This document shows positions 16,299 through 34,772 of a stretch of 34,889 bases of DNA, piece by piece. The DNA is from an uncultured Bacillota bacterium (lineage in GTDB: Bacteria > Bacillota > Clostridia > Christensenellales > UBA1242), in NCBI GenBank assembly GCA_947090235.1, contig CAMUNJ010000001.1, positions 1-34,889 of the forward strand. Direction: 5' to 3'. Position 1 is the stretch's first letter. Every line of letters begins with the position of its first letter. The translations under genes were made by a program, and so were the position numbers. The notes under the pieces were generated by a model that was not told the DNA's origin, ran no database searches, and was given only the letters and a program-made list of their open reading frames with translations.

Positions 16299-16345
16299 CC
16301 CTCCTAAGGCAAAGATTCCCGGTTAGACTCCGGGCGGGAACACCA
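16299..16345 (+). pseudogene. 3' half of the disrupted tRNA-Arg(CCU) gene (attR side)
   Basis: CCCTCCTAAGGC core, then GGCAA-AGATT-CCCGG-TTAGACT-CCGGG-CGGGAAC-A-CCA. No matching 5' half lies locally. Confidence 0.55.
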
Positions 16346-16373
16346 AAAAAAAACATGCTTATGCATGTTTTTT
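16342..16373. terminator. bidirectional terminator (tRNA remnant / rluA-type gene)
   Basis: A-run, AAACATGC-ttat-GCATGTTT, T-run. It overlaps the stop codon of the minus-strand gene. Confidence 0.65.
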
Positions 16374-17193
16374 ATTTCAGCCATTCTGGTTTTTTGGTGA
16401 AAACGCGTTTATTGAGATATTCTAATTCTCCTATCAAGCCATCAAGTTTTAGATAAGTACAATATAATTGTTGCGTTTTCTTTTTAAATTTTTTGTTGTC
16501 TTCATTCTTGCCATACTTGCCATCACCTATTATTGGATGCCCTAAATATGCGAGATGTGCTCGAATTTGATGAGTTTTTCCTGTCAAGAGGTCACATTCT
16601 ACAATACTACTTGTTGGATTTGATTTTATAGTCTTAAAGCCAGTCCTTATTTCCTCGCGTCCTCTGCCAGAATTTGCAAAAACTCTAACAAGACTTGTTT
16701 CACTATCTTTGCCAAGATAAGCCTTATATATTTCGCCCTTAAAGTCGGTTGCCCCCACAACTTCGGCTAGATATTTCTTTGTTATGGTATGTTTTTTAAA
16801 GGCGTTTAAAAGGATTTCTTTAGCAACCTTATTTTTAGCCATAATCATAAGCCCTTCAGTGTTGCGGTCTAATCTGTGCACAGCCATTGCACCTTTAATT
16901 CGACCTTCGAGTCCATCTACACCCTCAACTTCAACGCCTGTTTTTTTATCTAAAACAATAATGTTGTCGTCTTGAAAGATAATATCATAACCTTGATTTA
17001 ACCCACCATTCTCATAAAAAACAGTGATGACGCGTCCCTTTTCAATTGTAATATTGTCTTTAATTCGAATATCATCAATTTTAACATCTTTATTTCTCAA
17101 AAGTTTACAAACATAGTTGTATGAAAAACCCTTTTTGCAGAGGATGTCCGCAATTTTTTCTTGTCTATCATTTACAAAATTTAACTTTTCCAT
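16372..17193 (-). CDS. RluA-family pseudouridine synthase with N-terminal S4-like domain
   Basis: HRLDRNTEGLMIMAKN (catalytic Asp motif) and KTHQIRAHLAYLGHPIIGDGKYG. Confidence 0.85.
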   Translation of the reverse strand: MEKLNFVNDRQEKIADILCKKGFSYNYVCKLLRNKDVKIDDIRIKDNITIEKGRVITVFYENGGLNQGYDIIFQDDNIIVLDKKTGVEVEGVDGLEGRIKGAMAVHRLDRNTEGLMIMAKNKVAKEILLNAFKKHTITKKYLAEVVGATDFKGEIYKAYLGKDSETSLVRVFANSGRGREEIRTGFKTIKSNPTSSIVECDLLTGKTHQIRAHLAYLGHPIIGDGKYGKNEDNKKFKKKTQQLYCTYLKLDGLIGELEYLNKRVFTKKPEWLK

Positions 17194-17282
17194 AAGTTTA
17201 GTTTAACACAAAAGTTAAAATTTGTGAAGAACTTTTCATAAAATTACTAGGTCAATAATAAAATTGATTAGGAGATTTTTTT

Positions 17283-17537
17283 ATGAACGAACTTATAACT
17301 ATCGAAAACTCATCTAGCATTTCTATCAATGGTGCAACTAAAGTTGTATCATCAACTCAAAATCAAGGGATTGTTGAGACCAAAGAAAACACAATTATAA
17401 TTACTGGCAGTGAACTTGAAGTTCGCAAACTTGATCTTGAAAACTGCGAGGTTAGTTTTATTGGCAAGATAACAAACATTAAATTTACAAGTCTTGGCGG
17501 CAACAAAGTACCTTTATTAAAGCGTCTTTTCAAATAA
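17283..17537 (+). CDS. yabP: sporulation protein YabP
   Basis: 84 aa. ITGSELEVRKLDLENCEVSFIGKITNIKF matches the YabP pattern. A YabQ-like membrane gene follows. Confidence 0.75.
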   Translation: MNELITIENSSSISINGATKVVSSTQNQGIVETKENTIIITGSELEVRKLDLENCEVSFIGKITNIKFTSLGGNKVPLLKRLFK

Positions 17538-17712
17538 CGAACCTAATGTTCGTCGACTATCAACCGACTTATATAATACTCTAAACTTTATCCCTCCAAA
17601 TAAGTCAAATGTTTGTTGACTATCTACTAAGCAGTTTTAAATAATGTATCTTTTCAACTCAAAACGCAAAACACAAACTTCTAAAACGCCAAGCAAATTA
17701 AAAAAGGACAAA

Positions 17713-18111
17713 ATGTTATATCCCACTTTAAATCAACCTTATGTATTTTTTGTTATTCTACTTGCCGGATTGGTTAGTGGCTTTTTGTTTGACTTATCTA
17801 ATTTTTTGAATATCTTTTTTAATCGCAACAAGGTAACCAAACAAATTTTATATTTTTTAGCAACCATTTCAAGTGCATTTCTACTAGTATTATGCAACAT
17901 TTTATGCAACTATGGAATTTTTAGAATTTTTATAATCTTAACTTTTCTCACAGCCTTTATTCTTCAAAGATTTACATTAGGATCTTTGATAAGCGTAGCA
18001 ATAAGCAAGGTAAGTAAGATCAAACTTCCAAAACTAAAACTTCGCAAAACAAAAACCTCCTCCAGCGAGACGGTACAAGAAAACCTTAACGATAATTCTC
18101 CTCTAAAATAA
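17713..18111 (+). CDS. yabQ: spore cortex biosynthesis protein YabQ-like (3-4 TM)
   Basis: Position after yabP and small hydrophobic character. Start placed at ATG 17713 (AAGGA upstream); the track start at 17644 adds a Lys-rich non-hydrophobic leader with no RBS. Confidence 0.5.
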   Translation: MLYPTLNQPYVFFVILLAGLVSGFLFDLSNFLNIFFNRNKVTKQILYFLATISSAFLLVLCNILCNYGIFRIFIILTFLTAFILQRFTLGSLISVAISKVSKIKLPKLKLRKTKTSSSETVQENLNDNSPLK

Positions 18112-18247
18112 CCACTTGCGAATTGGCATCGGGAATTTTATCTAAATCATTTTGTTTTTGAGAAATCAAAATGCTTGTGACTAAAACTGCCACAAAAAGC
18201 AATACTATAAAAATAACACATAAAATTGTATGTTTTTTATCTTTCAT
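18086..18247 (-). CDS. possible 53-aa single-TM protein (not in the ORF track)
   Basis: Hand translation MKDKKHTILCVIFIVLLFVAVLVTSILISQKQNDLDKIPDANSQVVILEENYR. TATAAT lies 9 nt upstream of the ATG, and there is no SD. It overlaps the 3' end of yabQ convergently. Confidence 0.3.
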   Translation of the reverse strand: MKDKKHTILCVIFIVLLFVAVLVTSILISQKQNDLDKIPDANSQVVILEENYR

Positions 18248-18344
18248 TATATTTAGATTATACTACAAAACATAGTTATTTCAAACATATTTAAAGAAAA
18301 GCAAAAATTTAAATAAAATTTTTTAAAATTTTGTTGATAATTTA

Positions 18345-18373
18345 TTGACAACTGCAAAAAAATTTGATATTAT
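18345..18373 (+). promoter_or_regulatory. sigma-A type promoter for tRNA-Asn
   Basis: TTGACA (18345-18350), 17 nt, TATTAT (18368-18373). Confidence 0.65.
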
Positions 18374-18407
18374 AGCCTTGCATTAAAAAATTAATGCATC
18401 CCTCTAA

Positions 18408-18483
18408 TCCCCTATAGCTCAGTCGGTAGAGCACTCGGCTGTTAACCGAGTTGTCGTAGGTTCGAGTCCTACTGGGGGAGCCA
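18408..18483 (+). tRNA. tRNA-Asn (anticodon GUU), CCA encoded
   Basis: 76 nt. Acceptor TCCCCTA/TGGGGGA; D-arm GCTC-AGTCGGTA-GAGC; anticodon arm CTCGG-CTGTTAA-CCGAG; T-arm GTAGG-TTCGAGT-CCTAC; discriminator G; CCA. Confidence 0.92.
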
Positions 18484-22297: not shown

Positions 22298-22619
22298 AAT
22301 TGTAATATATCACATACAAAAGAGAAAAACAAGATATTTGATAAATTTTTTATTCAAATTAGTTTGGATACTATTTAAAATTAAATTAGCCTAATTCAAA
22401 AAAAACAAACACAAGAAAATTCGACACTTAATTTTATTTTTTTACAAAATGTGACAACAATCTCATTTTAAAACCATAAAAAAACCTTTTTCATAGCAAA
22501 ACGACATAAAAACTCAAGACTAATCACGCGAAAAATACTAGAAAAAAGGTGAAAATTTTAGAATTTGGTCGATTTTTGTAAAATAAACTTAATTATTTTA
22601 AAATATTTTTAAAAATTGT

Positions 22620-22648
22620 TTTACATTTTCACTTTTACATTGTATAAT
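22620..22648 (+). promoter_or_regulatory. promoter of the Spo0A_C-like gene
   Basis: TTTACA (22620-22625), 17 nt, TATAAT (22643-22648). GGAG at 22669-22672. Confidence 0.55.
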
Positions 22649-22678
22649 CATACTTGTAAATCAAAAAAGGAGTATTTT

Positions 22679-23155
22679 ATGATAATTGATGAAAAAACTA
22701 TTATTTTAGATGAAATCACCGACCTACTTATTTCCACAGGAATGCCATCGCACATTCAAGGATTTGAATATATTAAAGATGGAATATATGAAGCCGTTGT
22801 AAATCCCGGAATATTAAACAATATGACAAAAGTATTTTACCCAACTATTGCCGAACACTTTAATACAACTGCCGAAAGCGTTGAAAGAAATATTAGAAAT
22901 TGTATAACAAAAGCCTATGCTTCTGGTTCTCTTTTTCAATCACCTGACTTTAAAACTAGCAATTGTGTTGATTTAACACAAAATCATTGTAATAGTTATG
23001 TTATTTCAAACTATTCTAGAGCAATTAAAAAGCGTATGAACGATAGATACGAACATATCGAAGCAGTTAAAAACGGAATCGCTCGTGCCGAGAGAATCGA
23101 AGCCTTAGAAAAAGAACTTGCTAAATATAAACTTATATATGGCGAATTGACATAA
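22679..23155 (+). CDS. stand-alone Spo0A C-terminal (DNA-binding) domain protein
   Basis: 158 aa from ATG 22679. GMPSHIQGFEYIKDGIYEAV...VFYPTIAEHFNTTAESVERNIRNCITKAY matches the Spo0A_C effector domain. It has no receiver domain and has a C-terminal coiled-coil tail. Confidence 0.7.
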   Translation: MIIDEKTIILDEITDLLISTGMPSHIQGFEYIKDGIYEAVVNPGILNNMTKVFYPTIAEHFNTTAESVERNIRNCITKAYASGSLFQSPDFKTSNCVDLTQNHCNSYVISNYSRAIKKRMNDRYEHIEAVKNGIARAERIEALEKELAKYKLIYGELT

Positions 23156-23294: not shown

Positions 23295-24383
23295 TTAAAG
23301 CATACCTTTCCAAGCATAAAATATTCTACCTGCTGCCGCAACTGAGAAAATAGTAAAGTCATCTGTAGGACGATTATTTTTAGGTATTTCTAAATAACCA
23401 AAAGCGGCAACACATTTTGCATAAATGCGGATAGAATCATAATTTTCTGTCCAAGTAAAATTTTTGCCTCCAATCATTCCACCTTGAAAACCTTTGTTTA
23501 AGTTTGGGTCACTGCTTGTACTATCATAAATCACTTCAATAGTTCGTCCGCCACCACCAGATGGCTTGTTTTCAAGATTGACAACTCTATTTGTTAAACT
23601 ACTTAAATTTGATGTATTGGTAGATATCTTGTTTGTGTTGGAAGATATGTTTGTTCTCTGTGTAGACAATTCACTATTTATGTCTATCAAATCATTATCA
23701 ATATTGGTCAATCTTACAATATGATTAGATAATTCGGTTGTATTATTTTCAACACTCTGTTTTAAACCTGTTATGCTTTGAGAATTTTTAGAAATTTCCA
23801 ACTGGTTGGTTAAAATGTTTTCGGTGTTGTTTTTTATTGTACTTTTAAGGCTTCCCAGTTCACTTGAAAAACCATTAACAGCCTCTTCACTAGATTCTAC
23901 TTTTGCTTGCAATGTGCTTATTGCAGAATTGCAGTTATCTACATTTGTGTTTAGTTTAGTTAAATCTTCATTTTGTTTTTGTATAGCAGAACTATTATTG
24001 CCAATCAATTCTTGATGACTTTGCAATTTTGTGGAGTGAGAATTCAACACACTCTCACAAGAAGAAATTTTATTTCCTTGTGTTTGTATCAAACCTTCAA
24101 CATTGTCTATATCAGTTTGCAATAAAGAGATATCTGCTTGCTGGCTTTGAGATTTTGTTTGCAAATCTTGTATGTTTGTTTTTACTGTACCTATCTCTTG
24201 TTGTAAAGTTTCTACCTTTGCTATAGTGTCGTTTATCTTTTTTTCTAACTCTTGAATCTTTTCTTTATTCCCGCCCGCAGCCAAAAGTTCTTCCTTTAAA
24301 GAAGGAAGGGCATTTTTTACTAAAAACCACACCTCCCTTTCAAGTTGTTCAAGTTTGTCTTTCATTTGATCTTGTTTTTGCAT
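23295..24383 (-). CDS. long coiled-coil protein with a C-terminal globular beta-rich domain (truncated by TAA)
   Basis: 362 aa. About 270 aa of heptad-like Q/N/S/T/L-rich repeats, a GGGG linker, then TIEVIYDSTSS...RIFYAWKGML. No signal peptide. Confidence 0.65.
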   Translation of the reverse strand: MQKQDQMKDKLEQLEREVWFLVKNALPSLKEELLAAGGNKEKIQELEKKINDTIAKVETLQQEIGTVKTNIQDLQTKSQSQQADISLLQTDIDNVEGLIQTQGNKISSCESVLNSHSTKLQSHQELIGNNSSAIQKQNEDLTKLNTNVDNCNSAISTLQAKVESSEEAVNGFSSELGSLKSTIKNNTENILTNQLEISKNSQSITGLKQSVENNTTELSNHIVRLTNIDNDLIDINSELSTQRTNISSNTNKISTNTSNLSSLTNRVVNLENKPSGGGGRTIEVIYDSTSSDPNLNKGFQGGMIGGKNFTWTENYDSIRIYAKCVAAFGYLEIPKNNRPTDDFTIFSVAAAGRIFYAWKGML

Positions 24384-24455
24384 ATTTCCTCCTAATGAGA
24401 AAATATTAAAATATAATTTTCAAAAATTCAATACTTACTGCCAAATATATAATTT

Positions 24456-25103
24456 TTACTCCCCTCTTTTTTGCTTTTTTGTCTTCTTCATAAATATCAG
24501 CAATAAAATTATTGTCACGCAAGAAACCGCCACAACTATCCCAGTAATAACCCCAGCGTTTATTCCATAAGGTGCAAGTTGTTTAGTTTTTATCTTGCCA
24601 TAAAATAAACTTCCATCCTCATCAACAAAACAAACACATGTAAACTCTGCTTTTTTTATATAACCTTCGTATAAATACAATTCTTTGCCTTTGCTCAAAA
24701 TTTTATTTGTTGGACTTTCATCCAAATTATAAACAATCACATCATTTTCAATAACCGATGCATTGAAAACTGGATATACCTCTTGTGTAAGTTCATTGTA
24801 TGTCACATATCTAGCATATACAAAGCCTTGATAACTTTCCTCATTTATATATTCTATCTTTATAAAACCTTGATCTTCATCTTGTAAAACTTTAAGTTTT
24901 TCGCCATGCTTTATTATCAAATTTTCTTGGCTATTGTTTTTAATAGGATTGTCGAAACTTTTATCTTCAAATAAAAAACATTGAGAGGCTACAACTTGAA
25001 CATACCTATCTTCAGCAAAAACAACTTCCTGTCCAGCAAACATAGGAAATAAAAACATAAAACATAAAAGTAAAGATAACAAACAAAAAACTTTCAATTT
25101 CAT
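24456..25103 (-). CDS. secreted/anchored protein: signal peptide, SH3b-like repeats, C-terminal TM anchor
   Basis: N-terminal signal peptide. Two beta-rich modules (GFIKIEY..GFVYARYV and LFYGKIKTKQL). TM segment GVITGIVVAVSCVTIILLLIF followed by a KKTKKQKR stop-transfer. Confidence 0.55.
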   Translation of the reverse strand: MKLKVFCLLSLLLCFMFLFPMFAGQEVVFAEDRYVQVVASQCFLFEDKSFDNPIKNNSQENLIIKHGEKLKVLQDEDQGFIKIEYINEESYQGFVYARYVTYNELTQEVYPVFNASVIENDVIVYNLDESPTNKILSKGKELYLYEGYIKKAEFTCVCFVDEDGSLFYGKIKTKQLAPYGINAGVITGIVVAVSCVTIILLLIFMKKTKKQKRGE

Positions 25104-25297
25104 AATAAAATATTAACATAAAAATTTTTTTAAGTAAAGTTTTTTGTTGATAGATAAAAAATTATAAACTCAAACATTTAGTCCGCATGCTTATCTCACA
25201 AGAATCACTCCCAAACCTTAAACTTTTATATTATGATTGATTCCGGACATAGCGGGGGTGATGTCAAGATAGGACGGTAGGCTTTTGAAATACATAT

Positions 25298-25327
25298 AAA
25301 AAAGCATATCAATTTGATATGCTTTTT
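25298..25327. terminator. bidirectional terminator after the radical SAM gene
   Basis: AAAAAA-GCATATC-aattt-GATATGC-TTTTT, overlapping the stop codon at 25326-25328. Confidence 0.7.
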
Positions 25328-26372
25328 ATAATGTGTTATGTCTACACTTCTTACAAAGAGGTGCAAGTTGTAAGTTGTATTTTTTTATAATAGTTTCTGC
25401 TCTATTCAAAGTTTCCATCAATAAATCGGAAGGAGGAAAAGTTCCGATATTGTTATATGGAATGTAAGGGGATAACATTGGCATACAACCGCATTTGCAG
25501 ATTTCTTCAACTGCGGTCAATGTGTCTTCCACACTTTCCAGCCCAACGATAAGTCCAGACCTTACATTTTCTTTTCCGAAAATCTTGTTTGCAAGTTTTA
25601 AAAAAATGAAATATCTTTCTCTTCCTATTTTAAATTTTTCAGGACAATATTTTGAGCAAATCTTGTCGTTGAAAAGTTCAAGGTTAATAGAAAGCCCTTT
25701 CACCCCAATCTTTTTCAAATATTTGAGATAATCAAGGTATTGGTTTTCATCTAAGTAAGAATTAAAACCTCTTGGAGTCATCATTACATCAATTTCATAA
25801 TTAGAATAATTCTTGCAAAAGTATTCATATACCTCAGTCAAATATTCAAGATCCTCATTTTTTGGACTCCCTCCAGAAATTAAGATATGAGTGATACGAT
25901 TATCTTCTAATGCAACTTTTAAAGCAGCATCCATTGCTTCAATACTATTTTTTCTATATCTAATGGCATTCATTGAGCAAAATGCACAATGATTGTTGCA
26001 ACCTGAGATTGGAGAAATCCTTGCACGGTCAAAATGTGCATTAACGAAATCAGTTAAGAGTCCAAACCTATTTTTTTCGTTGTTTAGCATAAATTCACTA
26101 GGTTTCCAAATTTTGATTGGAATTAACTCTATTCCGTTTTCTTTAAGTATCAAAGAATCGCTTTTTAGTTCAATTTTGTATTCAGAACTTTCGTTTAAAT
26201 GAACTGTAACATACCAATCCTCAGTCAATTCAATCATAACACCAGTTGTTGTAACATAGTCATCATTATAAAACTTTTCACCAATCGTTTTATGTAGAAT
26301 AGTAAGTGCTTCATCAGAGATACTCACTCCATTCATCATTAATCGAATTTTAAGATTTTTAAAATTAATCAT
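25326..26372 (-). CDS. radical SAM enzyme with ~110-aa N-terminal extension and C-terminal Cys cluster
   Basis: CNNHCAFC (CxxxCxxC) at about residue 125. BioB/HydE-like TIM-barrel strand pattern (ILISGG; GLSINLE; GLIVGL). Extra cysteines at CKCGC and CKKC near the C-terminus. Confidence 0.8.
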   Translation of the reverse strand: MINFKNLKIRLMMNGVSISDEALTILHKTIGEKFYNDDYVTTTGVMIELTEDWYVTVHLNESSEYKIELKSDSLILKENGIELIPIKIWKPSEFMLNNEKNRFGLLTDFVNAHFDRARISPISGCNNHCAFCSMNAIRYRKNSIEAMDAALKVALEDNRITHILISGGSPKNEDLEYLTEVYEYFCKNYSNYEIDVMMTPRGFNSYLDENQYLDYLKYLKKIGVKGLSINLELFNDKICSKYCPEKFKIGRERYFIFLKLANKIFGKENVRSGLIVGLESVEDTLTAVEEICKCGCMPMLSPYIPYNNIGTFPPSDLLMETLNRAETIIKKYNLQLAPLCKKCRHNTL

Positions 26373-27348
26373 ATTTTATTCCTTCTATTTCTTTGCTTAT
26401 CATTATAAATTTTTTCTCATTGTAAAAACTTAGATAGTTCAATTCAAATATGCTTGGAAGTTTATTCTGAACAAGAATTTTGTCTAGTTCTTCTGATGAT
26501 GCTTGAAAACGAGGATTTATTTCCATAAAGAAAACTTCGGTTCCTTTGACAATATAATCAATCCCACCAATCCCGCGATAACCCAGAGCTTGCAATTTTT
26601 TTGTTATCTTTTGTGTTTGTGCTTTTATATTATCTTTAACTTTTTTGCCAAGTTTTTTGTATGCAGAGAAATTCCATCCATCATAACTTAATTGAGTTGT
26701 TATATTTATAATCTGGCAGGAGCCGTCAAATATAAGGGTGTGATTTTTTGAAATTATGAAAGTATTGTTGATAGAGATTGCATTCTCAACATACATTGAC
26801 ACTGAATAAACAACATTCTTATTTAATTGAGGGCGTATTTTATTTTCATTTTGTTTGTCTAAAACATATGTTCCTACACCACCAAAGCCAACGGGCTGTT
26901 GCACCACAAACCTCTCACAGGTTTCATCAAATTGTTTTTGTAATGATTTAAAAGATATATCTTTTCCTTTTATATACTTATAATCCAAAAGGCAAGCTTC
27001 ATTTTTTAATAACGAACGCGAAAGTGGCTTGTTGTTAAGTTTGTCAATAAATTTTAAATTATTTATACAGAGAAGACGATTTTTTCTGAGAAAATATTTT
27101 GCTCCAGCTTGATTGTACATCATGCATTTGGTTTGTTTGTCAGACTTAAAAAATATTTTTAAACACTTAATATAAAATTTTGATATTTTTTTGAAGTTTT
27201 CAAGTTTATTGTAATCAATATCTTTATTATAAATATCTTTGTAGTAGATAACATTTTCATTAGGCTCGCCAGAGATAAGAGCCGATTTTTTAAAAAAGTT
27301 AGTATTTTTAATAGTCCTTTCTTTTAGCCCAAAATAATAAATGTTCAT
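26365..27348 (-). CDS. ATP-grasp family ligase
   Basis: FVVQQPVGFGGVGTYV (P-loop-like glycine loop), GYRGIGGIDYIV and FFMEINPRFQASS (Mg/ATP-binding ExN motif). Its stop overlaps the radical SAM start (ATGATTAA). Confidence 0.8.
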   Translation of the reverse strand: MNIYYFGLKERTIKNTNFFKKSALISGEPNENVIYYKDIYNKDIDYNKLENFKKISKFYIKCLKIFFKSDKQTKCMMYNQAGAKYFLRKNRLLCINNLKFIDKLNNKPLSRSLLKNEACLLDYKYIKGKDISFKSLQKQFDETCERFVVQQPVGFGGVGTYVLDKQNENKIRPQLNKNVVYSVSMYVENAISINNTFIISKNHTLIFDGSCQIINITTQLSYDGWNFSAYKKLGKKVKDNIKAQTQKITKKLQALGYRGIGGIDYIVKGTEVFFMEINPRFQASSEELDKILVQNKLPSIFELNYLSFYNEKKFIMISKEIEGIKYD

Positions 27349-27377
27349 TTCTTTATCAAATTCCTCTTTTTACGTAT

Positions 27378-27407
27378 ATTTTAATATAGGAGAGGTATAT
27401 TTGTCAA
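27378..27407 (-). promoter_or_regulatory. promoter of the ATP-grasp/radical SAM operon
   Basis: Minus strand TTGACA (27407-27402), 18 nt, TAAAAT (27383-27378). AGAGGA RBS precedes the ATG at 27348. Confidence 0.55.
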
Positions 27408-27512
27408 CTGATTTAAAAGTTAAGCAAATTTAAACTTCATTAGTAATATAAGATTATTATTAAAAGCAACAAATGAGTGATAAAATATTCATTTGTCTAA
27501 TAAAATATTTTA

Positions 27513-28205
27513 ATGAAAACTACATTTTTAACAGTTAAGAAAAAATCAATTTTTGCAGTTTTGTTATGCGTTTTGCTTGCGGGCGGTTTTTGTGCCACTT
27601 ATTTTGGAGTTATGGCCAGCACAACGCCAAAGCCAGTGCATACCATTGTGATTGACGCGGGGCATGGCGGAATTGATGGTGGAGCAGAAGGCAAAACTAC
27701 TGGGGTGGCGGAAAGTGATTTAAACTTGGCCTATGCAAAAACTTTAAAGGGACTTTGCGAAGATTTTGGCATCGGTGTTGTTATGACTCGCAAAAACGAA
27801 AATGGGCTTTACTCACCCACTGCTTCCAATAAAAAGAAAAGTGAAATGGAAAAGCGTAAGCAAATTATTGAAGATAGCAACGCTGATTTAGTTGTCAGCG
27901 TGCATATGAATAGTTTTAAGTTATCCTCTTGCAGCGGTGCACAAGTTTATTATGCAAGCGGCAATGAGCAAGGTAAAATTCTTGCACAAAATGTACAGAC
28001 TTCACTTCATAATTCCTTTAAAAACGCGAAAAAACTACCTTCTGTTGGTGACTTTTTTGTTTTAAATTGCACTTCTAAACCCGGCATTTTAGTTGAATTT
28101 GGATTTTTATCCAATCCTCAAGAAGAGATAAATCTACAAAATAAAAATTACATGAAAAGCATGTGTTTCTCAGTTTTAGGTGGAATTTTAGAATTTTTTA
28201 AATAA
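27513..28205 (+). CDS. cwlD: N-acetylmuramoyl-L-alanine amidase, CwlD-like (Amidase_3 with N-terminal TM)
   Basis: IVIDAGHGGIDGGA, VSVHMNS and VEFGFLSN are the zinc and catalytic motifs of Amidase_3. A single N-terminal TM is typical of germination-specific CwlD. Confidence 0.75.
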   Translation: MKTTFLTVKKKSIFAVLLCVLLAGGFCATYFGVMASTTPKPVHTIVIDAGHGGIDGGAEGKTTGVAESDLNLAYAKTLKGLCEDFGIGVVMTRKNENGLYSPTASNKKKSEMEKRKQIIEDSNADLVVSVHMNSFKLSSCSGAQVYYASGNEQGKILAQNVQTSLHNSFKNAKKLPSVGDFFVLNCTSKPGILVEFGFLSNPQEEINLQNKNYMKSMCFSVLGGILEFFK

Positions 28206-28884: not shown

Positions 28885-29967
28885 TTAGGCATTCTTTACA
28901 TTTCCATTTTCAACCTTTAATATATTGGCATTCAACATCAAACTATACTCTGTGCATGTTATTATCGTCTGCGTTCGTGATGTGAAAGCCAAAAGCCTTT
29001 TTTGACGCTCTAAATCAAGTTCACTAAATACATCGTCTAGAAGCAAAATTGGATATTCCCCAGTTCGCTCCCTGATTATTTCTAACTCGGCCAATTTCAT
29101 AGATAAAGCGGCTGTCCTCTGTTGTCCTTGAGAGCCAAAGTTTTTAACTTCAACCCCATTTAAAAATATATCTAGATCGTCTCTATGCACGCCTATAGAT
29201 GTGTAGCCATGCTTGAAATCTTTTTCAAGATTTTTTTGTAAAGCCTTGAGCATTTCTTCTTTGAAATCTTTATCTTTTGCATCAAAACTATTGTAAGTAA
29301 TTTTTAATTGTTCACTTCCGCCAGATATATATGAATGTGCTTTCTCTGCATAAGGAGCAAGTTTTTCTATAAAATCTTTTCTTTCCAAAAATATTTTGTA
29401 GGCAAGATCTACTAATGCCCTGTCCCAAATGTCTATGGTGTCTTTTAAAACATTAAAATCTTTAGTTATTTTTAAGAGTTTATTTCTATTAGCCAAAACC
29501 TTTTCATACCTATTTAGTGCGTAAAAATATCTTTTATTGGTTTGTGAAATATCAATGTTCATAAACCTTCTACGCTCGTCTGGACTTTCTTTTACAAGTT
29601 TTAATTCTTGAGGTGAAAAAAACACTGCGTTAACATTCCCTAAAAGTTCGCCAATTTTTTTGATAGACACTCCATCAATTTTGATTGCTTTTTTACAAGA
29701 TTTATTAAAAATTAATTCTATTTCTACATCTCTATAAAGTCTAGAGAAGATTGCTTTTATATTAGAAATTTCCTCTCCCCATTTAATGGTTTCCTTTTCT
29801 TTACTAACCTTAAAACTTTTCCCAATAACAGCAAAAAAGATGGCTTCTAAAACATTGGTTTTGCCTTGTGCATTTTTGCCCACCAAAACATTAAGCCCCT
29901 CGCTAAACTTAATTATTTGTCTTTCATAATTTCTAAAGTTTTTAAGTTCAAGAGTATTTATTTTCAC
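28885..29967 (-). CDS. recF: DNA replication and repair protein RecF
   Basis: LELKNFRNYE, Walker A GKNAQGKTNVLEAI, SMC signature FGSQGQQRTAALSMKLAE, Walker B ILLLDDVFSELD. GTG start. Confidence 0.9.
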   Translation of the reverse strand: MKINTLELKNFRNYERQIIKFSEGLNVLVGKNAQGKTNVLEAIFFAVIGKSFKVSKEKETIKWGEEISNIKAIFSRLYRDVEIELIFNKSCKKAIKIDGVSIKKIGELLGNVNAVFFSPQELKLVKESPDERRRFMNIDISQTNKRYFYALNRYEKVLANRNKLLKITKDFNVLKDTIDIWDRALVDLAYKIFLERKDFIEKLAPYAEKAHSYISGGSEQLKITYNSFDAKDKDFKEEMLKALQKNLEKDFKHGYTSIGVHRDDLDIFLNGVEVKNFGSQGQQRTAALSMKLAELEIIRERTGEYPILLLDDVFSELDLERQKRLLAFTSRTQTIITCTEYSLMLNANILKVENGNVKNA

Positions 29968-30073
29968 GCATTTAGTATATCACTTTGTAAAAAGAAAATC
30001 AAACTTCTTTTTGTTTAATTTGTTTGCTAAAATTATTTATTTAAGATATAATTTTATATAAGGAGTTAAAATT

Positions 30074-31138
30074 ATGAAAAAGTGGTGGTTTTTTGCTTTA
30101 ACTTTATGTTTTATATTGCCTTGCTTTGCCTTTTTGGGTTGCTCTTCACCATTCACTGAAAAGGCTATTTGTAAGATTGGAAATACTTCTTATTCTTCTC
30201 TTGCTGAAGCAATTAACGATTGCGAAGAAGGTCAAACAATTTATGTTTATAATGATGTTAAAGAGAATTTAGAAAATGAAAATATAAAAGAACTTGGTCT
30301 TAACATTGCATCATCAAATGGAAATGTTTATGTTGAATATATTATCAACAAACCTATCACCATAATTGGAGTAGATAAAAACTATAAAAGCCCTAAAATT
30401 TATGGTTCTTTCAAAATTCAAATATCTTCAACCGCCACCCTAAACAATCTAGAAATTATAAATGATTATATCTCGCTTGAAAACGATGAACTAAATAAAC
30501 CTTATCAAGTTGCAATCAAAGTTTTAAATGGCAATCTAATAATGAAGTATTGCAATATTCACAAATTTCAAAATATAGATAACCAAGTTATTCAAGACAA
30601 CAACCTTTCTTGTTTAGGCGGTGTTGAAATTTTGAGAAAAGATAGCGAACTTGATGGTCAAGTTTTAAACTATCATTTAAGTAGCAATGAAATTAGTGGT
30701 TATAACAACTTTACTCAAACGCAACAATCTTTTGGAATAAGTTTTATATCAAACAGAGATGGGTTCACAAATTTAGAGCCTTTTACAATAAATTCTCAAA
30801 CTGATGATAGAATGTCAGTTTTAGAAAGTTCTAATAAAATAAGAGAAAACAACAACATTTTAACTCAGTTTTATAATGAAGAAAGCAAAATTTATGAATA
30901 TCTAAAAACCTATAACAAAGATTTGATAAAAGAAGACAATTTTGATGAAAACAGCACAGTTCACTTCTTGGGTGATTCTTTTGGTGGAGAAGAAAAAGTT
31001 GATTTTAATGTTTATGGACAAATGTCCTTCAAGTTTATAAAAAACCTTAATCTTATTATGAAAACTTCAAAAGCAAAAGTCCTTCCATGCCCAAGACAAA
31101 ATGTGACAGTTGTTCCTTTTATAGAATTGCCTCAATAA
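30074..31138 (+). CDS. lipoprotein, unknown function
   Basis: Lipobox AFLG-C and AAGGAG RBS. TTGCTA-17-TATAAT promoter upstream. Confidence 0.6.
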   Translation: MKKWWFFALTLCFILPCFAFLGCSSPFTEKAICKIGNTSYSSLAEAINDCEEGQTIYVYNDVKENLENENIKELGLNIASSNGNVYVEYIINKPITIIGVDKNYKSPKIYGSFKIQISSTATLNNLEIINDYISLENDELNKPYQVAIKVLNGNLIMKYCNIHKFQNIDNQVIQDNNLSCLGGVEILRKDSELDGQVLNYHLSSNEISGYNNFTQTQQSFGISFISNRDGFTNLEPFTINSQTDDRMSVLESSNKIRENNNILTQFYNEESKIYEYLKTYNKDLIKEDNFDENSTVHFLGDSFGGEEKVDFNVYGQMSFKFIKNLNLIMKTSKAKVLPCPRQNVTVVPFIELPQ

Positions 31139-31162
31139 AAAACATAGCCTAAGCCATGTTTT

Positions 31163-31804
31163 TTATTTTTGTTCTTCTTCGTTAGTCATTTTTTCTATGA
31201 TATATTCATCAACAACTTCAAACATAAGGTTATCTAGTTTTTCATTTCCCTTACAAAATACTGGAGAGTATTCGCATTCAAATCCATTGTTCTCTAAATC
31301 CTTCTCAGTAATTCCATTCTTTCTCATTGCCCAAGTAGTAAACCAGTTTTTATTTTGTAATTTATTAGTCATTGAATTTTTAGAGTAATAACACATTTCT
31401 AATCCACTAGCACGTTCTTTGTCTTTCATTAAAACCTTTTCTTTTCCATCAACTATAACTTTCAATTCTCCCCAAATAATTGAATCATTACTACTTCCTG
31501 AAGATTGAATATCTACTTTAAAAGTAAAATCGCTTCCTGTTTTATTTGAAAGTAGATTAGCCATATCATCATTAGAAATGATATTAGTTGAAGATAAGTT
31601 TTTTATAAGCCACAAAAAATTTGCAAGTCTTGTATTTAAATTATTTTTTTCTTTCTTTGATTGTTGGTCATAACAACTTTGAATTTGGCTTTGTTTTTCT
31701 TTTAATTCTTCTATTTGAGTATCTATAAGATCAAGTTGCTTTTGTTTTTCTTTTTGTAATAAACTTAAAATCTTCTTTCCTTTTTTAAAGTTTTTTTGAA
31801 GCAT
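31163..31804 (-). CDS. hypothetical protein (N-terminal coiled coil + globular domain)
   Basis: 213-aa ORF. The SD at its own ATG is weak; see the upstream small ORF and A7 tract. Confidence 0.5.
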   Translation of the reverse strand: MLQKNFKKGKKILSLLQKEKQKQLDLIDTQIEELKEKQSQIQSCYDQQSKKEKNNLNTRLANFLWLIKNLSSTNIISNDDMANLLSNKTGSDFTFKVDIQSSGSSNDSIIWGELKVIVDGKEKVLMKDKERASGLEMCYYSKNSMTNKLQNKNWFTTWAMRKNGITEKDLENNGFECEYSPVFCKGNEKLDNLMFEVVDEYIIEKMTNEEEQK

Positions 31805-31871
31805 TATTCATTTCTTCAAATTTTTCTTGTGTCAAAGAATAACTATTCAAAGATTTAATAATACCGTCCAT
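31785..31871 (-). CDS. 28-codon upstream ORF with strong RBS, overlapping the start of the 213-aa ORF
   Basis: AAGGAGAAAAATATG. It translates to MDGIIKSLNSYSLTQEKFEEMNNASKKL* and ends just after an A7 run (T7 on the plus strand, 31791-31797). Confidence 0.35.
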   Translation of the reverse strand: MDGIIKSLNSYSLTQEKFEEMNNASKKL

Positions 31872-31948
31872 ATTTTTCTCCTTAAAAATATTATAGCATA
31901 ATAAAGACATATGTCAAGATTAAATTTTTATTTTCAAAACAGTTATGC

Positions 31949-31977
31949 TTGACAAAAAAATATTGTGCGTTTATACT
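31949..31977 (+). promoter_or_regulatory. dnaA promoter
   Basis: TTGACA (31949-31954), 17 nt, TATACT (31972-31977). Confidence 0.6.
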
Positions 31978-32006
31978 TGTTTTTGTAAATTTAAAAGGTG
32001 GATGAA

Positions 32007-33359
32007 ATGCAAGAGTTAAAAAATATTTGGGCTACTATACTTGAAAAACTTGAACTTACAGTTTCTAATGTTTCTTTCGTCATGTGGTTTAAACCTCTCA
32101 AAGTTGTAGATCTTGTTGACAACAAAAAACTTGTTATTGCTACAAATTCAAGTTCTGCTAAAAACCAAATTCTTAGAAACTATATGGATAAGTTGAGCGA
32201 AGTTGTCTGCGATGTTATTGGCGAAAATGTTGAAATTGAGGTTTTAGATCAAAATGAAGAGATAGCCTACATTGAAAAAAACGGCGAAAAAAATGAGAAA
32301 AAAGAGGTTGAACTTACTAAAAATCCATTCAACGCCAAATATACTTTTGATAATTTTGTAGTTGGAAAAAGCAATCAGTTTGTTTATGCTGCAGCAAGAG
32401 CGGTGGCGGAACATCCTGGCGAAAAATTTAATCCTCTCTTTATTTATGGTGGTGTGGGTCTTGGAAAAACTCACCTTCTTCATGCTATAGGAAATTATTT
32501 GCGTGAATTTAATCCTAATTTAAAGGTTAGTTATATAACTTGCGAACAATTTGTAAATGCTTACACAGAAAGTTTGGGATCAAATGCTAAAATCAAGGCT
32601 ACTCTTGAATTTAGGTCTAAATATAGAAATCTTGATGTGTTAATGGTTGACGATATGCAGGCAATTGCTAACAAAATGGGAACTCAAGAAGAGTTTTTTA
32701 ACACTTATAACGAACTTTATCAAAACAACAAACAAATTATATTGACTTCAGATAGGCCACCAAAAGATATTCCTACACTAACAGATAGGCTTGTCTCTAG
32801 ATTTTCTAGCGGTATTTTACAAGATATTCAATCTCCAGACTTTGAAACTAAGGTTGCTATTTTAAGAAAAAAATGTCAACTTGAAAAATATGTTATAGAT
32901 GATGATGTTATCAACTACATTGCCGAACATGTAGATAGCAACATTCGAGAACTGGAAGGCATGCTTGCAAAGGTATATTTTTTAGCAAACATATTAGGCA
33001 AAAAATCTGCAACTATGGAAGAAGCCTTGGAAGCCTTTAATGGTCAAGCAGAAGAAGACAAAAATGAAGGTTATACTCCAGAAACAATTATCAAAGGTGT
33101 TTGCGATTATTTTGGTGTTTCTAAAGAAGACATAATTGGCAAAAAGAAAAGCAAAGAAATAGTAGAACCTCGTATGATTGCAATATATCTTATAAGTGAA
33201 CTCCTTGAGATGCCACTTGTTTCAATAGGAAAATTGTTTGGAGGTCGTGACCACACAACAATTATGCACTCTCGTGATAAGATTGCAGACGGAATGAAGA
33301 CATCTCATAAAACTCAAACCTTAGTAAACGAAATAAAGAAAATGTTGAAAGGTGGATAA
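32007..33359 (+). CDS. dnaA: chromosomal replication initiator DnaA
   Basis: LNAKYTFDNFVVGKSNQF, Walker A GGVGLGKTHLLHAIGN, Walker B LMVDDMQ, sensor and box VII (SDRPPKD; RLVSRFSSG), domain IV (REIVEPRMIAIYL..GGRDHTTIMHS). ATG 32007 follows AAGGTGGA; GTG 31998 is the alternative. Confidence 0.95.
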   Translation: MQELKNIWATILEKLELTVSNVSFVMWFKPLKVVDLVDNKKLVIATNSSSAKNQILRNYMDKLSEVVCDVIGENVEIEVLDQNEEIAYIEKNGEKNEKKEVELTKNPFNAKYTFDNFVVGKSNQFVYAAARAVAEHPGEKFNPLFIYGGVGLGKTHLLHAIGNYLREFNPNLKVSYITCEQFVNAYTESLGSNAKIKATLEFRSKYRNLDVLMVDDMQAIANKMGTQEEFFNTYNELYQNNKQIILTSDRPPKDIPTLTDRLVSRFSSGILQDIQSPDFETKVAILRKKCQLEKYVIDDDVINYIAEHVDSNIRELEGMLAKVYFLANILGKKSATMEEALEAFNGQAEEDKNEGYTPETIIKGVCDYFGVSKEDIIGKKKSKEIVEPRMIAIYLISELLEMPLVSIGKLFGGRDHTTIMHSRDKIADGMKTSHKTQTLVNEIKKMLKGG

Positions 33360-33560
33360 CTTCTATCTACTTATCCCCAGTTTATCCACCATTTATCCAC
33401 ACAGGCACTCCTGTTTCTAATTCTATATATAGTGTAATTGAAGATAAAAAATTAAAAATAACAACAATATACATACAGTCACAAAAGTTGTCCACATTTA
33501 CACACAGCCTAATAATATTACTACTACTAAATAAAAATATTAAAATATATATTCAACACG
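33351..33560. other. oriC: oriC candidate: DnaA-box cluster plus AT-rich unwinding region in the dnaA-dnaN spacer
   Basis: Boxes: GGTGGATAA (33351-33359, inverted, overlapping the dnaA stop), TTATCCCCA (33371-33379), TTATCCACC (33382-33390), TTATCCACA (33393-33401), TTGTCCACA (33488-33496). TACTACTACTA tract at 33519-33529. Nearly pure A/T at 33510-33556. Confidence 0.75.
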
Positions 33561-33594
33561 CACGCGAACAATAAAAAAATCAAAGGCAAAAAAG

Positions 33595-33623
33595 TTGCTT
33601 TATTCTACAAAATGTGTTATAAT
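33595..33623 (+). promoter_or_regulatory. dnaN promoter (extended -10)
   Basis: TTGCTT (33595-33600), 17 nt, TGtTATAAT (33615-33623). Confidence 0.6.
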
Positions 33624-33671
33624 ATTTTTACGCTAGAAAAAAGCAAATTTATATTTTTAGGAGAAAAATTT

Positions 33672-34772
33672 ATGTTAATCACTTGTCAAGGTTTAGAACT
33701 TTCTGACGCTTTTATTAGAGTTAGCAAAGCAATTTCAAATAAGATTACAAACCCTATTTTGGAAGGTATAAAAATTATTGCAGAAGACGGAACTCTTACT
33801 ATGAGTGCCACAGATACAGAACTTTCTATTGAAAAGAAAATTAAAGCAGAAGTTAAAATTGAAGGTGAAACTGTAGTTCCTGGAAGATTTATAACTGAGT
33901 TTGTAAAAAACTTAACAAATAGCCAAATTCAACTTGAAGTTAATGAAAAAAATCAATTGACAATCCGTTATGAAGATAGTGAAAGTGTAATACAATGTTA
34001 TAATCCTGTTGAATATCCTGGATTTAAAAAAGTTAGAACAGAGGAATTTTTTGGAATTACAAAAAAGGATTTTAAAAGTGCGGTAAGTAAAAGTATTTTT
34101 TCTGTTGCTGTTGACGACTCACGTCCAATCTTGAAAGGTGTTTTATTTGATATCAACAACAAAGAACTTAGTGTTGTTGCTCTTGATGGTTATAGACTTG
34201 CAAGAATAAATAAAAAAATAACTTCAAATATAAAAAAATCTATAGTTATTCCAGCAAGAAGTTTGAATGAAATTAGCAAACTTATTGACGATAGTGATGA
34301 CATAATAAATATTTACATTGATGATTACACTATCATGATTGATCTTGGAGACACAAAAATAACTTCTCGTCTACTCGAAGGAGATTATATCAATTATAAA
34401 CAAATTATTCCAGTAAATTATGAAACTTTCGTTATTTTAAATACCGAACAATTCCAAGAAGCTTTAGAGAGAGCAACATTGCTATCAAAGGCTTCTCAAA
34501 ATAACTTTGTTAAGTTTGATATTCGCGAAAACAATTTATGTATAACTTCTAACTCAGAACTTGGAAATATTAAAGAAAATATTCCTGTCACAGTTACTGG
34601 AAAAGATCTTGTTATATCTTTCAATCCAAGATATTTCCTTGAAAGTTTGAGAGTAAATTCAAATGAGTTTGTTAAAATTTGTTTTAATAAATCTTCAACA
34701 CCTTGTGTTATTGTTCCAACTGAGGAAGACGAATTTTTATATCTCATTCTTCCAGTTAGAGTTATTGGATAG
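33672..34772 (+). CDS. dnaN: DNA polymerase III beta sliding clamp
   Basis: 366 aa from ATG 33672 (AGGAGA RBS). NPILEGIKIIAEDGTLTMSATDTELSI, DDSRPILKGVLF, VALDGYRLA, SRLLEGDYINYKQIIP, LILPVRV. The track start at 33612 lies inside the promoter. Confidence 0.93.
   Translation: MLITCQGLELSDAFIRVSKAISNKITNPILEGIKIIAEDGTLTMSATDTELSIEKKIKAEVKIEGETVVPGRFITEFVKNLTNSQIQLEVNEKNQLTIRYEDSESVIQCYNPVEYPGFKKVRTEEFFGITKKDFKSAVSKSIFSVAVDDSRPILKGVLFDINNKELSVVALDGYRLARINKKITSNIKKSIVIPARSLNEISKLIDDSDDIINIYIDDYTIMIDLGDTKITSRLLEGDYINYKQIIPVNYETFVILNTEQFQEALERATLLSKASQNNFVKFDIRENNLCITSNSELGNIKENIPVTVTGKDLVISFNPRYFLESLRVNSNEFVKICFNKSSTPCVIVPTEEDEFLYLILPVRVIG

Follow-up and report, generated by a model that had tools for sequence, protein, structure and literature searches.

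An ATP-grasp/radical SAM enzyme pair carried by a cassette inserted at cwlD in an uncultured Christensenellales bacterium

Organization of the locus

In an uncultured Bacillota bacterium of the Clostridia (Christensenellales; UBA1242), the first 34,889 nucleotides of contig CAMUNJ010000001.1 (GenBank assembly GCA_947090235.1), hereafter the window (positions 1-34,889), contain two adjacent genes encoding an ATP-grasp ligase and an atypical radical S-adenosylmethionine (SAM) enzyme. In the original prediction, made from the sequence alone, they were regarded as an isolated two-gene operon devoid of any visible precursor peptide and possibly related to sporulation. From the comparison with related loci and family proteins (designated by L and P numbers, respectively), it appears instead that the pair is a conserved and mobile enzyme unit, which reached its present position as the cargo of a cassette inserted at the neighbouring cwlD-like gene. 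The features on which this view rests are listed below with the evidence for each.

25326..26372, minus strand: radical SAM gene, 348 residues, with an N-terminal alpha/beta domain (residues 1-110) and a TIM-barrel core; open reading frame (ORF), Pfam and AlphaFold2 (AF2) model.
26365..27348, minus strand: ATP-grasp ligase gene, 327 residues, of the ATP-grasp_3 type and similar to carbamoyl-phosphate synthase (CPS) and PurK; ORF and Pfam.
26365..26372, minus strand: 8-nucleotide overlap, ATGATTAA, of the ATP-grasp stop and the radical SAM start; sequence.
27378..27407, minus strand: sigma-70-type promoter, TTGACA, 18-nucleotide spacer, TAAAAT; consensus match.
25299..25327, minus strand: intrinsic-terminator-like hairpin, 13-bp stem and T-run, directly after the radical SAM stop.
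25977..26000, minus strand: codons of CNNHCAFC, the CX3CX2C cluster motif (C125, C129, C132); sequence and invariant columns.
25335..25355, minus strand: codons of C340-K-K-C343-R-H345-N346, a candidate second metal site; family alignment.
25087..25290, plus strand: degenerate second copy, with frameshifts, of codons ~1-55 of cwlD and of the region upstream; repeat and alignment.
25260-25279, plus strand: junction arm GATGTCAAGATAGGACGGTA, which ends the displaced cwlD fragment; unique in the window.
27513..28205, plus strand: intact cwlD-like amidase gene, the apparent insertion target; Amidase_3, with spore_cwlD at 171.9 bits, below the cut-off of 221.55.

Regarding expression, the overlap of the ATP-grasp stop with the radical SAM start, as well as the dedicated promoter and terminator of an isolated bicistron, had been put forward in the original prediction and both are borne out. 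When positions 24300-27700 were scanned for such signals, TTGACA-18-TAAAAT agreed with the consensus at 11 of 12 positions and was the sole match of this quality, while the hairpin (25327..25299 on the minus strand) was the sole terminator-like site. A purine-rich Shine-Dalgarno-like sequence lies upstream of both start codons, and start/stop overlaps or short gaps are common among related pairs, with ORF coordinates giving a 4-nucleotide overlap or direct abutment in L006, L007 and L009. A Rfam scan gave no family in or near the cassette. Together, these signals show that the two genes form an intact, self-contained and evidently translationally coupled transcription unit.

Insertion of the cassette at cwlD

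The two intergenic gaps flanking the pair had been considered empty of any precursor gene; this holds as regards a precursor but the gap at 25104-25325 is not empty, as it harbours most of the degenerate cwlD copy. The repeat partner of this copy is the 5' part of intact cwlD together with its upstream region from ~27482 (27482-27700). The displaced fragment reads ...TPKP / ...IMIDSGHSGGD where intact cwlD has TPKPVHTIVIDAGHGGID, and its local alignment with the cwlD 5' end scores 20; shuffled sequences give 12.7 +/- 2.0 and no other segment exceeds 17.

Related loci were collected by scanning one genome per species, by which 40 loci were recovered, and several of them bear the same footprint. 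When the fragment junctions are compared with two intact cwlD genes, the match to cwlD stops directly behind ...CATGGNGG....GAT and gives way to a shared arm, GTCAAGWTAGGACRGTA, in three fragments of L008 (f1-f3), in L032, in L010 and in the window; this arm is absent from intact cwlD and present only in degenerate form in the oldest L008 fragment (f4). It is unique in the window, where none would be expected by chance, and among 53 loci the arm pattern was encountered only at cwlD-fragment junctions, namely in L008 (three times), L010 and L032. This amounts to six clear junctions in four sources, i.e. three related loci from metagenome-assembled genomes (MAGs) and the window, to which a metagenome scan for the arm added one further contig of 1.2 kb. 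In the pair-bearing cassettes, the terminator hairpin comes after the arm, and related hairpin sequences are found in L008 and L032.

The most informative relative is L008, where four fragments spanning codons 1-55 of cwlD, progressively decayed and in the same orientation as the intact gene, occur within positions 2608-10622 and divide four distinct groups of genes, the ATP-grasp/radical SAM pair being one of them. The same junction follows the radical SAM gene in L032 (500-721) and L010 (1140-1225). Cassettes are thus stacked at the cwlD 5' end, with the older fragments more decayed and no recombinase inside the cassettes. As in an integrative cassette, direct repeats of the target, an element-side arm and alternative cargo in relatives are all present. 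This is, on the evidence of these junctions, the footprint of circular cassettes integrating inside cwlD, each one bringing a replacement 5' end and displacing the previous one. The comparison shows the pair to be the cargo of a ~2.2-kb cassette, apparently inserted at cwlD codon ~55 by site-specific recombination, and the unit to be, as read from these loci, accessory and mobile. That the two enzymes form one unit and that this unit is mobile can be held with high confidence.

Beyond the pair, the interval between cwlD and the SH3 gene is a hotspot for other cargo, at the following positions in relatives.

L006, 4898-6926 and 9376-9941: cargo of the cwlD-to-SH3 hotspot.
L008, 3419-6627 and 9397-11058: cargo of the cwlD-to-SH3 hotspot.

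This cargo comprises a barnase-type RNase (PF00545), after which two families of small immunity-like ORFs alternate in repeats, as well as a Cys_rich_CPCC protein and an mTERF-repeat protein, so that the hotspot looks like a polymorphic toxin/immunity island. Mechanistically, the arrangement recalls integron cassettes and the accretion of cis-mobilizable elements (CIME), in that short, recombinase-less cassettes of one to a few genes sit head to tail at one site and share the recombination sequence that bounds each of them, with the older target fragments more decayed. Unlike in integrons, the site lies inside the protein-coding cwlD (codon ~55) and the cassette supplies a replacement 5' end and promoter region; besides, neither an attC-like structure nor an integron integrase was identified at the cwlD cassettes.

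The insertion bears directly on the spore-related role that the neighbouring cwlD and ytaF genes had suggested, namely a sporulation-associated pathway in which the pair would modify a spore component. The genes around the pair are cwlD-like, ytaF-like and recF genes together with those of an SH3 membrane protein and a coiled-coil protein, so that the pair does lie between cwlD-like and SH3/coiled-coil/Spo0A_C genes; it is also located near spoIIE-cwlD in L001, L006, L008 and L043, and the host seemingly stems from a spore-forming Clostridia lineage. However, since this adjacency arose when the cassette inserted and the cwlD 5' end was duplicated, the cwlD/ytaF neighbourhood is uninformative on function and the spore hypothesis is left without basis. 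Close relatives (L005, L007, L009) carry the pair away from cwlD, and cassettes at the same site carry toxin/immunity cargo. The examination of sigma-factor motifs, proposed earlier as a check, returned a promoter of the vegetative sigma-70 type. The hint at a spore-associated ATP-grasp of the YheC/YheD type does not hold either: in the Pfam and NCBIfam scans of the window proteins (E <= 0.01 throughout), PF14398 (ATPgrasp_YheCD) is absent from the matches of the ATP-grasp protein, and it was seen only in precomputed Pfam entries of a few distant ATP-grasp homologues. Moreover, the module occurs in archaea and in lineages not expected to sporulate, i.e. Bacilli-type and Mycoplasma-like MAGs, Fundidesulfovibrio, Thermoanaerobaculia and DPANN archaea, which we take from their taxon names to be non-sporulating. 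The spore reading is largely refuted and must be viewed as very improbable.

The ATP-grasp enzyme

The ATP-grasp protein matches Pfam ATP-grasp_3 (PF02655, 2.9e-10), and its best NCBIfam match is the CPS large subunit; the family and structure searches together also gave PurK, biotin carboxylase, MfnD and PurT. The residues for nucleotide and Mg binding are intact (K107, Q150, D264, E276-I-N278-P-R280), and an alignment of 25 sequences has K107, G157, D264, E276, N278 and R280 invariant. The AF2 model is of high confidence (predicted local distance difference test, pLDDT, 94.5) and, among the 50 matches listed by the fold search against the PDB (a number that also applies to the search with the radical SAM model), the best folds are PurK, the Streptomyces peptide ligase 8ynd, pyruvate carboxylase and CPS, at template-modelling (TM) scores of ~0.6. 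With its Lys, Gly-rich loop, D/E-x-N and Arg, the protein is by sequence and predicted structure a member of the ATP-grasp superfamily.

The two partners have diverged at different rates. In L006, L008, L009, L011, L012 and L043, the radical SAM protein is 53-63% identical to that of the window (57-63% when L043 is set aside) but the ATP-grasp protein only 31-37%, a close ATP-grasp being limited to L005 (61% identity) and L007 (52%). The faster divergence of the ligase suggests either subtype swapping or a diversified choice of substrate. In L001 (7022-7983), a 61%-identical relative, the ATP-grasp is split by the gene calls of the source into ORFs of 131 and 173 residues, which possibly reflects pseudogenisation of the module or an error of the MAG assembly.

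The radical SAM enzyme

The partner protein matches Radical_SAM (PF04055, 5.9e-12), and its AF2 model (mean pLDDT 96.5) has radical SAM cores as top fold matches. The ~110 residues that had been noticed ahead of the CNNHCAFC cluster are indeed there and are confidently modelled as a distinct N-terminal domain. In an alignment of 28 family members, C125, C129 and C132 are invariant and H162-x2-I-S-G-G-S is conserved, so that, with CX3CX2C, a SAM-binding motif and a TIM-barrel core, the protein is, as judged from sequence and model, a canonical member of the superfamily. Beyond the cluster motif, only C340-x2-C343-x-H345-N346 is invariant among the 28. The five additional C-terminal cysteines from which an auxiliary cluster had been envisaged do exist in the window protein (CKCGC and CKKC), but CKCGC is restricted to the nearest relatives, and the auxiliary-cluster idea is weakened because only two cysteines and one histidine are kept in the family.

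As for family assignment, the best NCBIfam model is NF045502 ('variant_rSAM'), which covers residues 6-306 and hence includes the N-terminal domain, at 115.5 bits (E 2.5e-33) for a cut-off of 125; given this near miss, the protein is treated as belonging to a sister group rather than as a member. NF045502 is also the top family of all 28 aligned relatives (best 1.3e-41), while MSMEG_0568 (best 3.9e-28) comes second. For the window protein itself, the MSMEG_0568/Nit1C model TIGR04043 reaches 44.4 bits against a cut-off of 303.7 and aligns over residues 213-335 only, i.e. the C-terminal third. The window enzyme would therefore be a distant sister of the Nit1C MSMEG_0568 enzymes. Apart from its score, it differs from NF045502 by the canonical CX3CX2C and by CxxCxHN in place of CxxCQNN, and the model carries no functional annotation.

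The closest matches of known structure in a sequence-profile search of the PDB are MqnE (1.2e-05) and ThiH (1.3e-05), then KamA and HydG, and weak NCBIfam matches go to CofH, ThiH, MqnE and MqnC. In the AF2 model, the core superposes on MqnE, ThiH, HydG and LipA at a TM score of ~0.5 and, for MqnE, ThiH, HydG and CofH, with a root-mean-square deviation of 3.3-3.9 A over ~235 residues at 15-19% identity. The enzyme thus appears remotely related to the MqnE/ThiH/HydG/CofH group; the action of these closest solved structures on small molecules supports a small-molecule substrate here. It differs from them in both terminal extensions, and their pathway partners are absent. A KamA-like aminomutase was considered and dropped, as sequence matches were weak only and no KamA chain was among the 50 listed folds.

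Besides a small molecule, the substrate could be a peptide or a protein, which the ATP-grasp enzyme would ligate, cyclise or tag and the radical SAM enzyme cross-link or epimerise, with the substrate gene located elsewhere. ATP-grasp and radical SAM enzymes co-occur in clusters for ribosomally synthesised and post-translationally modified peptides (RiPPs) (PMC8939145), a peptide ligase (8ynd) is among the best structural matches of the ATP-grasp, the separate ~110-residue alpha/beta domain predicted for the radical SAM enzyme could bind a peptide, and fast divergence of the ATP-grasp would be expected if a variable substrate were read. However, ORFs of 15-110 residues within 2 kb of the pair were clustered over 45 loci and no small ORF is conserved beside the pair, the apparent families being overlapping frames of cwlD, of a RaSEA-like gene or of an ABC-F gene; the failure to see a RiPP precursor in the two flanking gaps is hence extended to the family. 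The absence of a SPASM-type cysteine pattern, also noted beforehand, is confirmed by Pfam and NCBIfam scans, which gave no SPASM or twitch match in the radical SAM protein, nor is there any match to a RiPP recognition element (RRE); with no such domain and no adjacent conserved precursor, the pair departs from SPASM/RiPP maturases. On the ligase side, graspetide and RimK models are not among the Pfam or NCBIfam matches, which belong to other clades (ATP-grasp_3, CPS, PurK), and the graspetide survey does not cover the clade of the window protein (PMC8939145). The cassette is moreover self-contained from promoter to terminator, and the recurrent partners of the pair are small-molecule enzymes. 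A peptide or protein substrate is accordingly considered unlikely and, from the lack of a precursor ORF and of SPASM/RRE domains and from the partner genes elsewhere, a small molecule is favoured.

Conservation of the pair and fusion proteins

At the sensitivity used, homologue searches returned 93 radical SAM clusters among 5.8 billion proteins, as well as 84 ATP-grasp clusters, in both cases mostly metagenomic. To count how often the two occur together, 45 sources were scored with a hidden Markov model (HMM) of the window ATP-grasp family: the ATP-grasp adjoins the radical SAM gene in 36 of them and, as contig ends cut the locus in five of the nine sources without partner, in 36 of the 40 informative loci. 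The carriers encompass gut Clostridia and Bacilli MAGs, a Mycoplasma-like MAG, Muribaculaceae, Thermoanaerobaculia, Fundidesulfovibrio agrisoli SG106 and Acidimicrobiales among bacteria, as well as Woese- and Aenigmatarchaeota (DPANN) and Methanosarcinales among archaea. The ATP-grasp gene precedes the radical SAM gene in the clade of the window, and the order is inverted elsewhere.

Fusions were surveyed by an exhaustive profile search of 1.84 billion representatives, which gave 358 representatives at E <= 1e-30, the best 150 being inspected for their architecture. No fewer than 37 of these 150 are single ATP-grasp::radical SAM polypeptides of ~745-800 residues, and nitroreductase::ATP-grasp::radical SAM, radical SAM::ATCase (aspartate carbamoyltransferase) and PP-loop::radical SAM fusions occur once each. 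In the fusion P0266, residues 2-312 align with the full-length window ATP-grasp (36% identity, E 1e-48) and residues 385-732 with the window radical SAM protein (35% identity, E 7e-57), in the order of the window genes. Among the fused forms there is a tendency towards CX7CX2C and, where the window protein has its C-terminal CxxCxHN motif, towards CxxCQNN; such CX7CX2C proteins may be the source of the name 'variant_rSAM'.

Since the pairing survives order inversion across phyla and about a quarter of the top representatives are fused, the two products are shown, as far as comparative genomics can tell, to act as one functional unit. The pairing is on this basis ancient, and the fusion is the decisive evidence. 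This is in line with the two-enzyme pathway proposed at the outset, which was to be given up if both proteins fell into well-characterised families of unrelated function or if the pairing proved not to be conserved. The HMM and neighbourhood analyses then suggested have now been carried out: the comparisons show neither enzyme to lie in a characterised family and the pairing is conserved, so that the proposal stands.

Searches beyond chromosomes brought little. Only Nit1C/MSMEG_0568 relatives were found on plasmids, and BFVD contained only generic radical SAM folds. The single phage match, record MT835476, was discarded, as it is labelled UNVERIFIED, has bacterial-looking genes and lacks an ATP-grasp.

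PylB, a radical SAM lysine mutase, and PylC, an ATP-grasp ligase, act sequentially on an amino-acid-type small molecule. As adjacent radical SAM and ATP-grasp enzymes without a precursor, they offer the best functional analogy, and the window pair probably works in a comparable sequence on a small molecule. The pair is nevertheless not PylB/PylC itself, as had been argued: neither window protein has a PylB or PylC model among its NCBIfam matches, no Pyl structure is among the PDB sequence-profile matches or the 50 listed fold matches, and pylD, pylS and pylT were not found in the window, whose two transfer RNA (tRNA) genes are distant (at 7200 and 18408). Unlike the Pyl enzymes, the window radical SAM protein has an additional N-terminal domain and the C-terminal CxxCxHN, and the pair is often fused and mobile.

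Genomic company of the module in other lineages

In gut Bacilli-type MAGs and in Clostridium sp. CAG:440, the pair occurs with a fixed gene set in at least five gene orders, consisting of a RaSEA-like radical SAM enzyme (TIGR01210, 197 bits), a PaaK-like adenylating enzyme, an ArgE/DapE-type deacylase and a GNAT protein. These clusters include an ABC-F protein above the 'ribosomal protection-like' cut-off (444-467 bits vs 380), and some also encode a HAD phosphatase, an amidinotransferase/DDAH-like enzyme and a second, small radical SAM enzyme, so that the whole looks like a biosynthetic cluster with self-resistance. In the Clostridia loci L012, L013 and L035, where the radical SAM protein is 56-58% identical to that of the window, a RaSEA-like enzyme and a nitroreductase are added. 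In archaeal loci, the pair is accompanied by an ATCase of PyrB grade (264.5 bits for a PyrB equivalog cut-off of 236.95) and variously by a nitroreductase, a flavin adenine dinucleotide (FAD) oxidoreductase, a RaSEA-like enzyme or an NAD synthase.

This company raises the case for a housekeeping or cofactor route of patchy occurrence, for instance through a carbamoyl/ureido or pyrimidine-like intermediate handled with a PyrB-type ATCase and flavin oxidoreductases. Archaeal and some bacterial pairs do adjoin PyrB-grade ATCase, nitroreductase/FAD oxidoreductases and NAD synthase, radical SAM::ATCase and nitroreductase::ATP-grasp::radical SAM fusions exist, and the best NCBIfam match of the ATP-grasp is the CPS large subunit. 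In addition, MSMEG_0568, to which the radical SAM enzyme is closest among named families, is part of the Nit1C cluster for nitrogen/cyanide assimilation, in which a radical SAM enzyme is combined with an ATP-using PurM/AIRS-like enzyme, a GNAT protein and a flavoprotein (PMC1199592), a set that parallels the partners of window-type pairs elsewhere. However, the partner of the window enzyme is an ATP-grasp and not an AIRS-type protein, and a nitrilase was found neither in the window nor in those related loci that were examined. The sparse and patchy distribution (93 radical SAM clusters in 5.8 billion proteins, 358 representatives in the fusion survey), the location on mobile cassettes and integrase-flanked islands, the possible disruption of the ATP-grasp in L001 and the lack of any accessory enzyme in the window version all speak against such a route, which we regard as quite improbable.

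A different company is met in five independent bacterial loci, namely a pentapeptide-repeat nSTAND1 NTPase encoded either in between the genes of the pair or beside them.

L040, 10007-14378: nSTAND1 region.
L038, 10442-14826: nSTAND1 region.
L047, 3892-8001: nSTAND1 region.
L051, 10438-15341: nSTAND1 region.
L052, 13991-17137: nSTAND1 region.

The NTPase gene lies between the two genes of the pair in L038, L040 and L047 and next to them in L051 and L052; its companions are TIR proteins in L038 and L040, SIR2 in L047/L048 and unknown proteins of 556-725 residues in L051 and L052. In L040, which is Fundidesulfovibrio agrisoli SG106, the order is radical SAM, ATCase, TIR, nSTAND1, ATP-grasp. In three unrelated loci encoding the fused enzyme, from a Rhodospirillales MAG, a 'Candidatus Kentrum' symbiont and an unassigned contig, a convergent gene for a pentapeptide-repeat protein of 526-534 residues follows, and then a tyrosine recombinase; the pentapeptide-repeat proteins are mutually homologous and have a hydrophobic C-terminal segment.

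L055, 12246-14765: fused gene, pentapeptide-repeat protein and recombinase.
L056, 10385-14474: fused gene, pentapeptide-repeat protein and recombinase.
L057, 10338-13245: fused gene, pentapeptide-repeat protein and recombinase.

L055 also has HMUDK_hel, thymidylate-synthase-like and dCTP-deaminase genes near the fused gene. In L045 (4374-10842), a NUDIX::ATP-grasp protein of 534 residues, as close to the window ATP-grasp as the Bacilli partners are, belongs to an apparent operon devoid of a radical SAM gene, together with a Pfam 'GT4-conflict' glycosyltransferase (666 residues), an unknown protein of 205 residues and a UvrD-type helicase with GajB-like PADLOC hits.

With the nSTAND1-pentapeptide NTPases in five bacterial loci, TIR/SIR2 in three and the fused forms on integrase-flanked islands, the module resembles anti-phage systems. 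Radical SAM enzymes are known as defence effectors, and Ophion combines a radical SAM enzyme with PHP and phosphoribosyltransferase (PRTase) components (bioRxiv 10.1101/2025.09.30.679545), which differ from those of the ATP-grasp/radical SAM pair. Viperin is a generic fold match only, at ranks 29-33 with TM scores of ~0.47-0.49, and, in contrast to Avs-type/STAND systems, the window cassette has no STAND, TIR or SIR2 gene. With the defence-system models of PADLOC-DB 2.0, no family was assigned to the pair, nor to the STAND, TIR, SIR2 and pentapeptide partners.

Rather than attacking, the pair could protect its host, by modifying the nucleotide pool, tRNA or ribosomal RNA (rRNA) or a cell-wall precursor, or by inactivating a toxin or antibiotic, and so confer immunity against toxins or phage. 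This would agree with the immunity-like ORFs (CPCC, DUF4926-like) and toxin/immunity sets of the cwlD-hotspot cassettes in relatives, with the lack of an exporter or self-resistance gene in the window cassette, with the link of the module to STAND/TIR/SIR2 immune-type proteins elsewhere, and with the NUDIX::ATP-grasp relative beside a 'GT4-conflict' glycosyltransferase and a UvrD helicase. However, the Bacilli pair stands beside biosynthetic enzymes and separate resistance-type genes (ABC-F, GNAT), as would better befit a producer, the radical SAM protein has no homology to resistance radical SAM enzymes (Cfr/RlmN being generic folds at TM scores of ~0.46), and PADLOC has no match to the pair. 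A protective function is thus deemed distinctly unlikely.

Proposed function

In the explanation that we favour, the pair would be an accessory two-enzyme module making a specialised small molecule for microbial or phage conflict, a proposal for which we see about as much in favour as against; its conflict-metabolite part is much less secure than the unit-and-mobility part. In such a scheme, the ATP-grasp enzyme, with its CPS/PurK-like E-x-N-P-R core, would convert a carboxylate or carbamate into the activated acyl (carbamoyl) phosphate and couple it to an amine. Before or after this ligation, the radical SAM enzyme would draw on SAM and on the [4Fe-4S] cluster of its CX3CX2C motif to generate a 5'-deoxyadenosyl radical, by which the same amino-acid- or nucleobase-like substrate would be rearranged, cleaved or cross-linked at a C-C or C-X bond. 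The product would be a specialised small molecule, either a toxic antimetabolite or a signal, involved in inter-microbial or anti-phage conflict, and the window would hold the minimal two-gene form.

Small-molecule chemistry is supported by the recurrent partners, i.e. RaSEA-like, PaaK-like, ATCase, nitroreductase, FAD oxidoreductase, HAD, amidinotransferase-like, ArgE/DapE and GNAT proteins, and conflict by the association with ABC-F, with nSTAND1/TIR/SIR2, with pentapeptide proteins and a recombinase, and with the toxin/immunity cargo of the cwlD hotspot. Judged from this company of the module elsewhere, a role in conflict is most likely, ahead of housekeeping or sporulation.

Several points weigh on the other side. 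The literature gave no substrate or product for any family member. It is also strange, if the pair produces a toxin, that its cassette in the window lacks any gene for export, resistance or immunity. As PADLOC is blind to the pair and its partners, the link with defence rests on domain content and gene order; as the accessory sets differ between lineages, one common product is unlikely. The minimal pair of the window may do something simpler or different, and the PyrB-grade ATCase of the archaeal loci could simply serve housekeeping pyrimidine synthesis. Finally, the ATP-grasp is possibly disrupted in L001, which would mean that the module is dispensable and limits what this locus can tell.

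A more far-reaching version, tentative and on balance doubtful, is that bacteria and archaea share a hitherto undescribed family of horizontally mobile conflict systems, of which the pair is the conserved catalytic core. The modified metabolite would then be a toxin/antimetabolite or an immune signal, acting with target-protection or sensor proteins, namely ABC-F in gut Bacilli and pentapeptide/nSTAND1 NTPases with TIR/SIR2 in Proteobacteria and others, and the window would represent a minimal form in an integron-like array that targets cwlD and rebuilds its 5' end at each insertion. A literature search found nothing describing the pair, its fusions, the STAND/pentapeptide association or the cwlD cassette array.

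Other features of the window

Away from the pair, the tRNA genes at 7200-7271 and 18408-18480 bracket a tyrosine integrase gene (8192-9613), and the same interval holds genes for a SHOCT-domain protein (11460-12479) and a KAP-family P-loop NTPase (12821-15025); 7200-18480 is probably an integrated island. At 22616-23155 lies a gene for the Spo0A C-terminal DNA-binding domain (2.2e-21) devoid of a receiver domain, whereas the syntenic gene of L001 encodes a full Spo0A of 255 residues with Response_reg. The left end of the window (150-2827) contains two tandem paralogues of class-II (D/K/N-type) aminoacyl-tRNA synthetases. From the recF, dnaA and dnaN genes at its right end (28885-34772), the window appears to be close to the replication origin.

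Concluding remarks

The ATP-grasp/radical SAM pair constitutes a conserved and often fused enzyme unit distributed over human-gut Clostridia and Bacilli, environmental bacteria and DPANN archaea, and it makes a clean target for enzyme discovery since two genes suffice. While its proposed role in conflict is to be taken with the reservations expressed above, the unit possibly represents a new class of natural products or immune effectors, and its recurring partners (ABC-F, pentapeptide-repeat and STAND proteins with TIR/SIR2) provide hypotheses on bioactivity. In this respect, Fundidesulfovibrio agrisoli SG106 is a named and presumably cultured strain with a STAND-linked version of the module.

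Beyond the enzymes themselves, the stacked cassettes at cwlD suggest a mechanism of gene capture in gut Firmicutes that was not found described. More generally, this case shows that a neighbouring gene can be the target of integration and not necessarily a functional partner.

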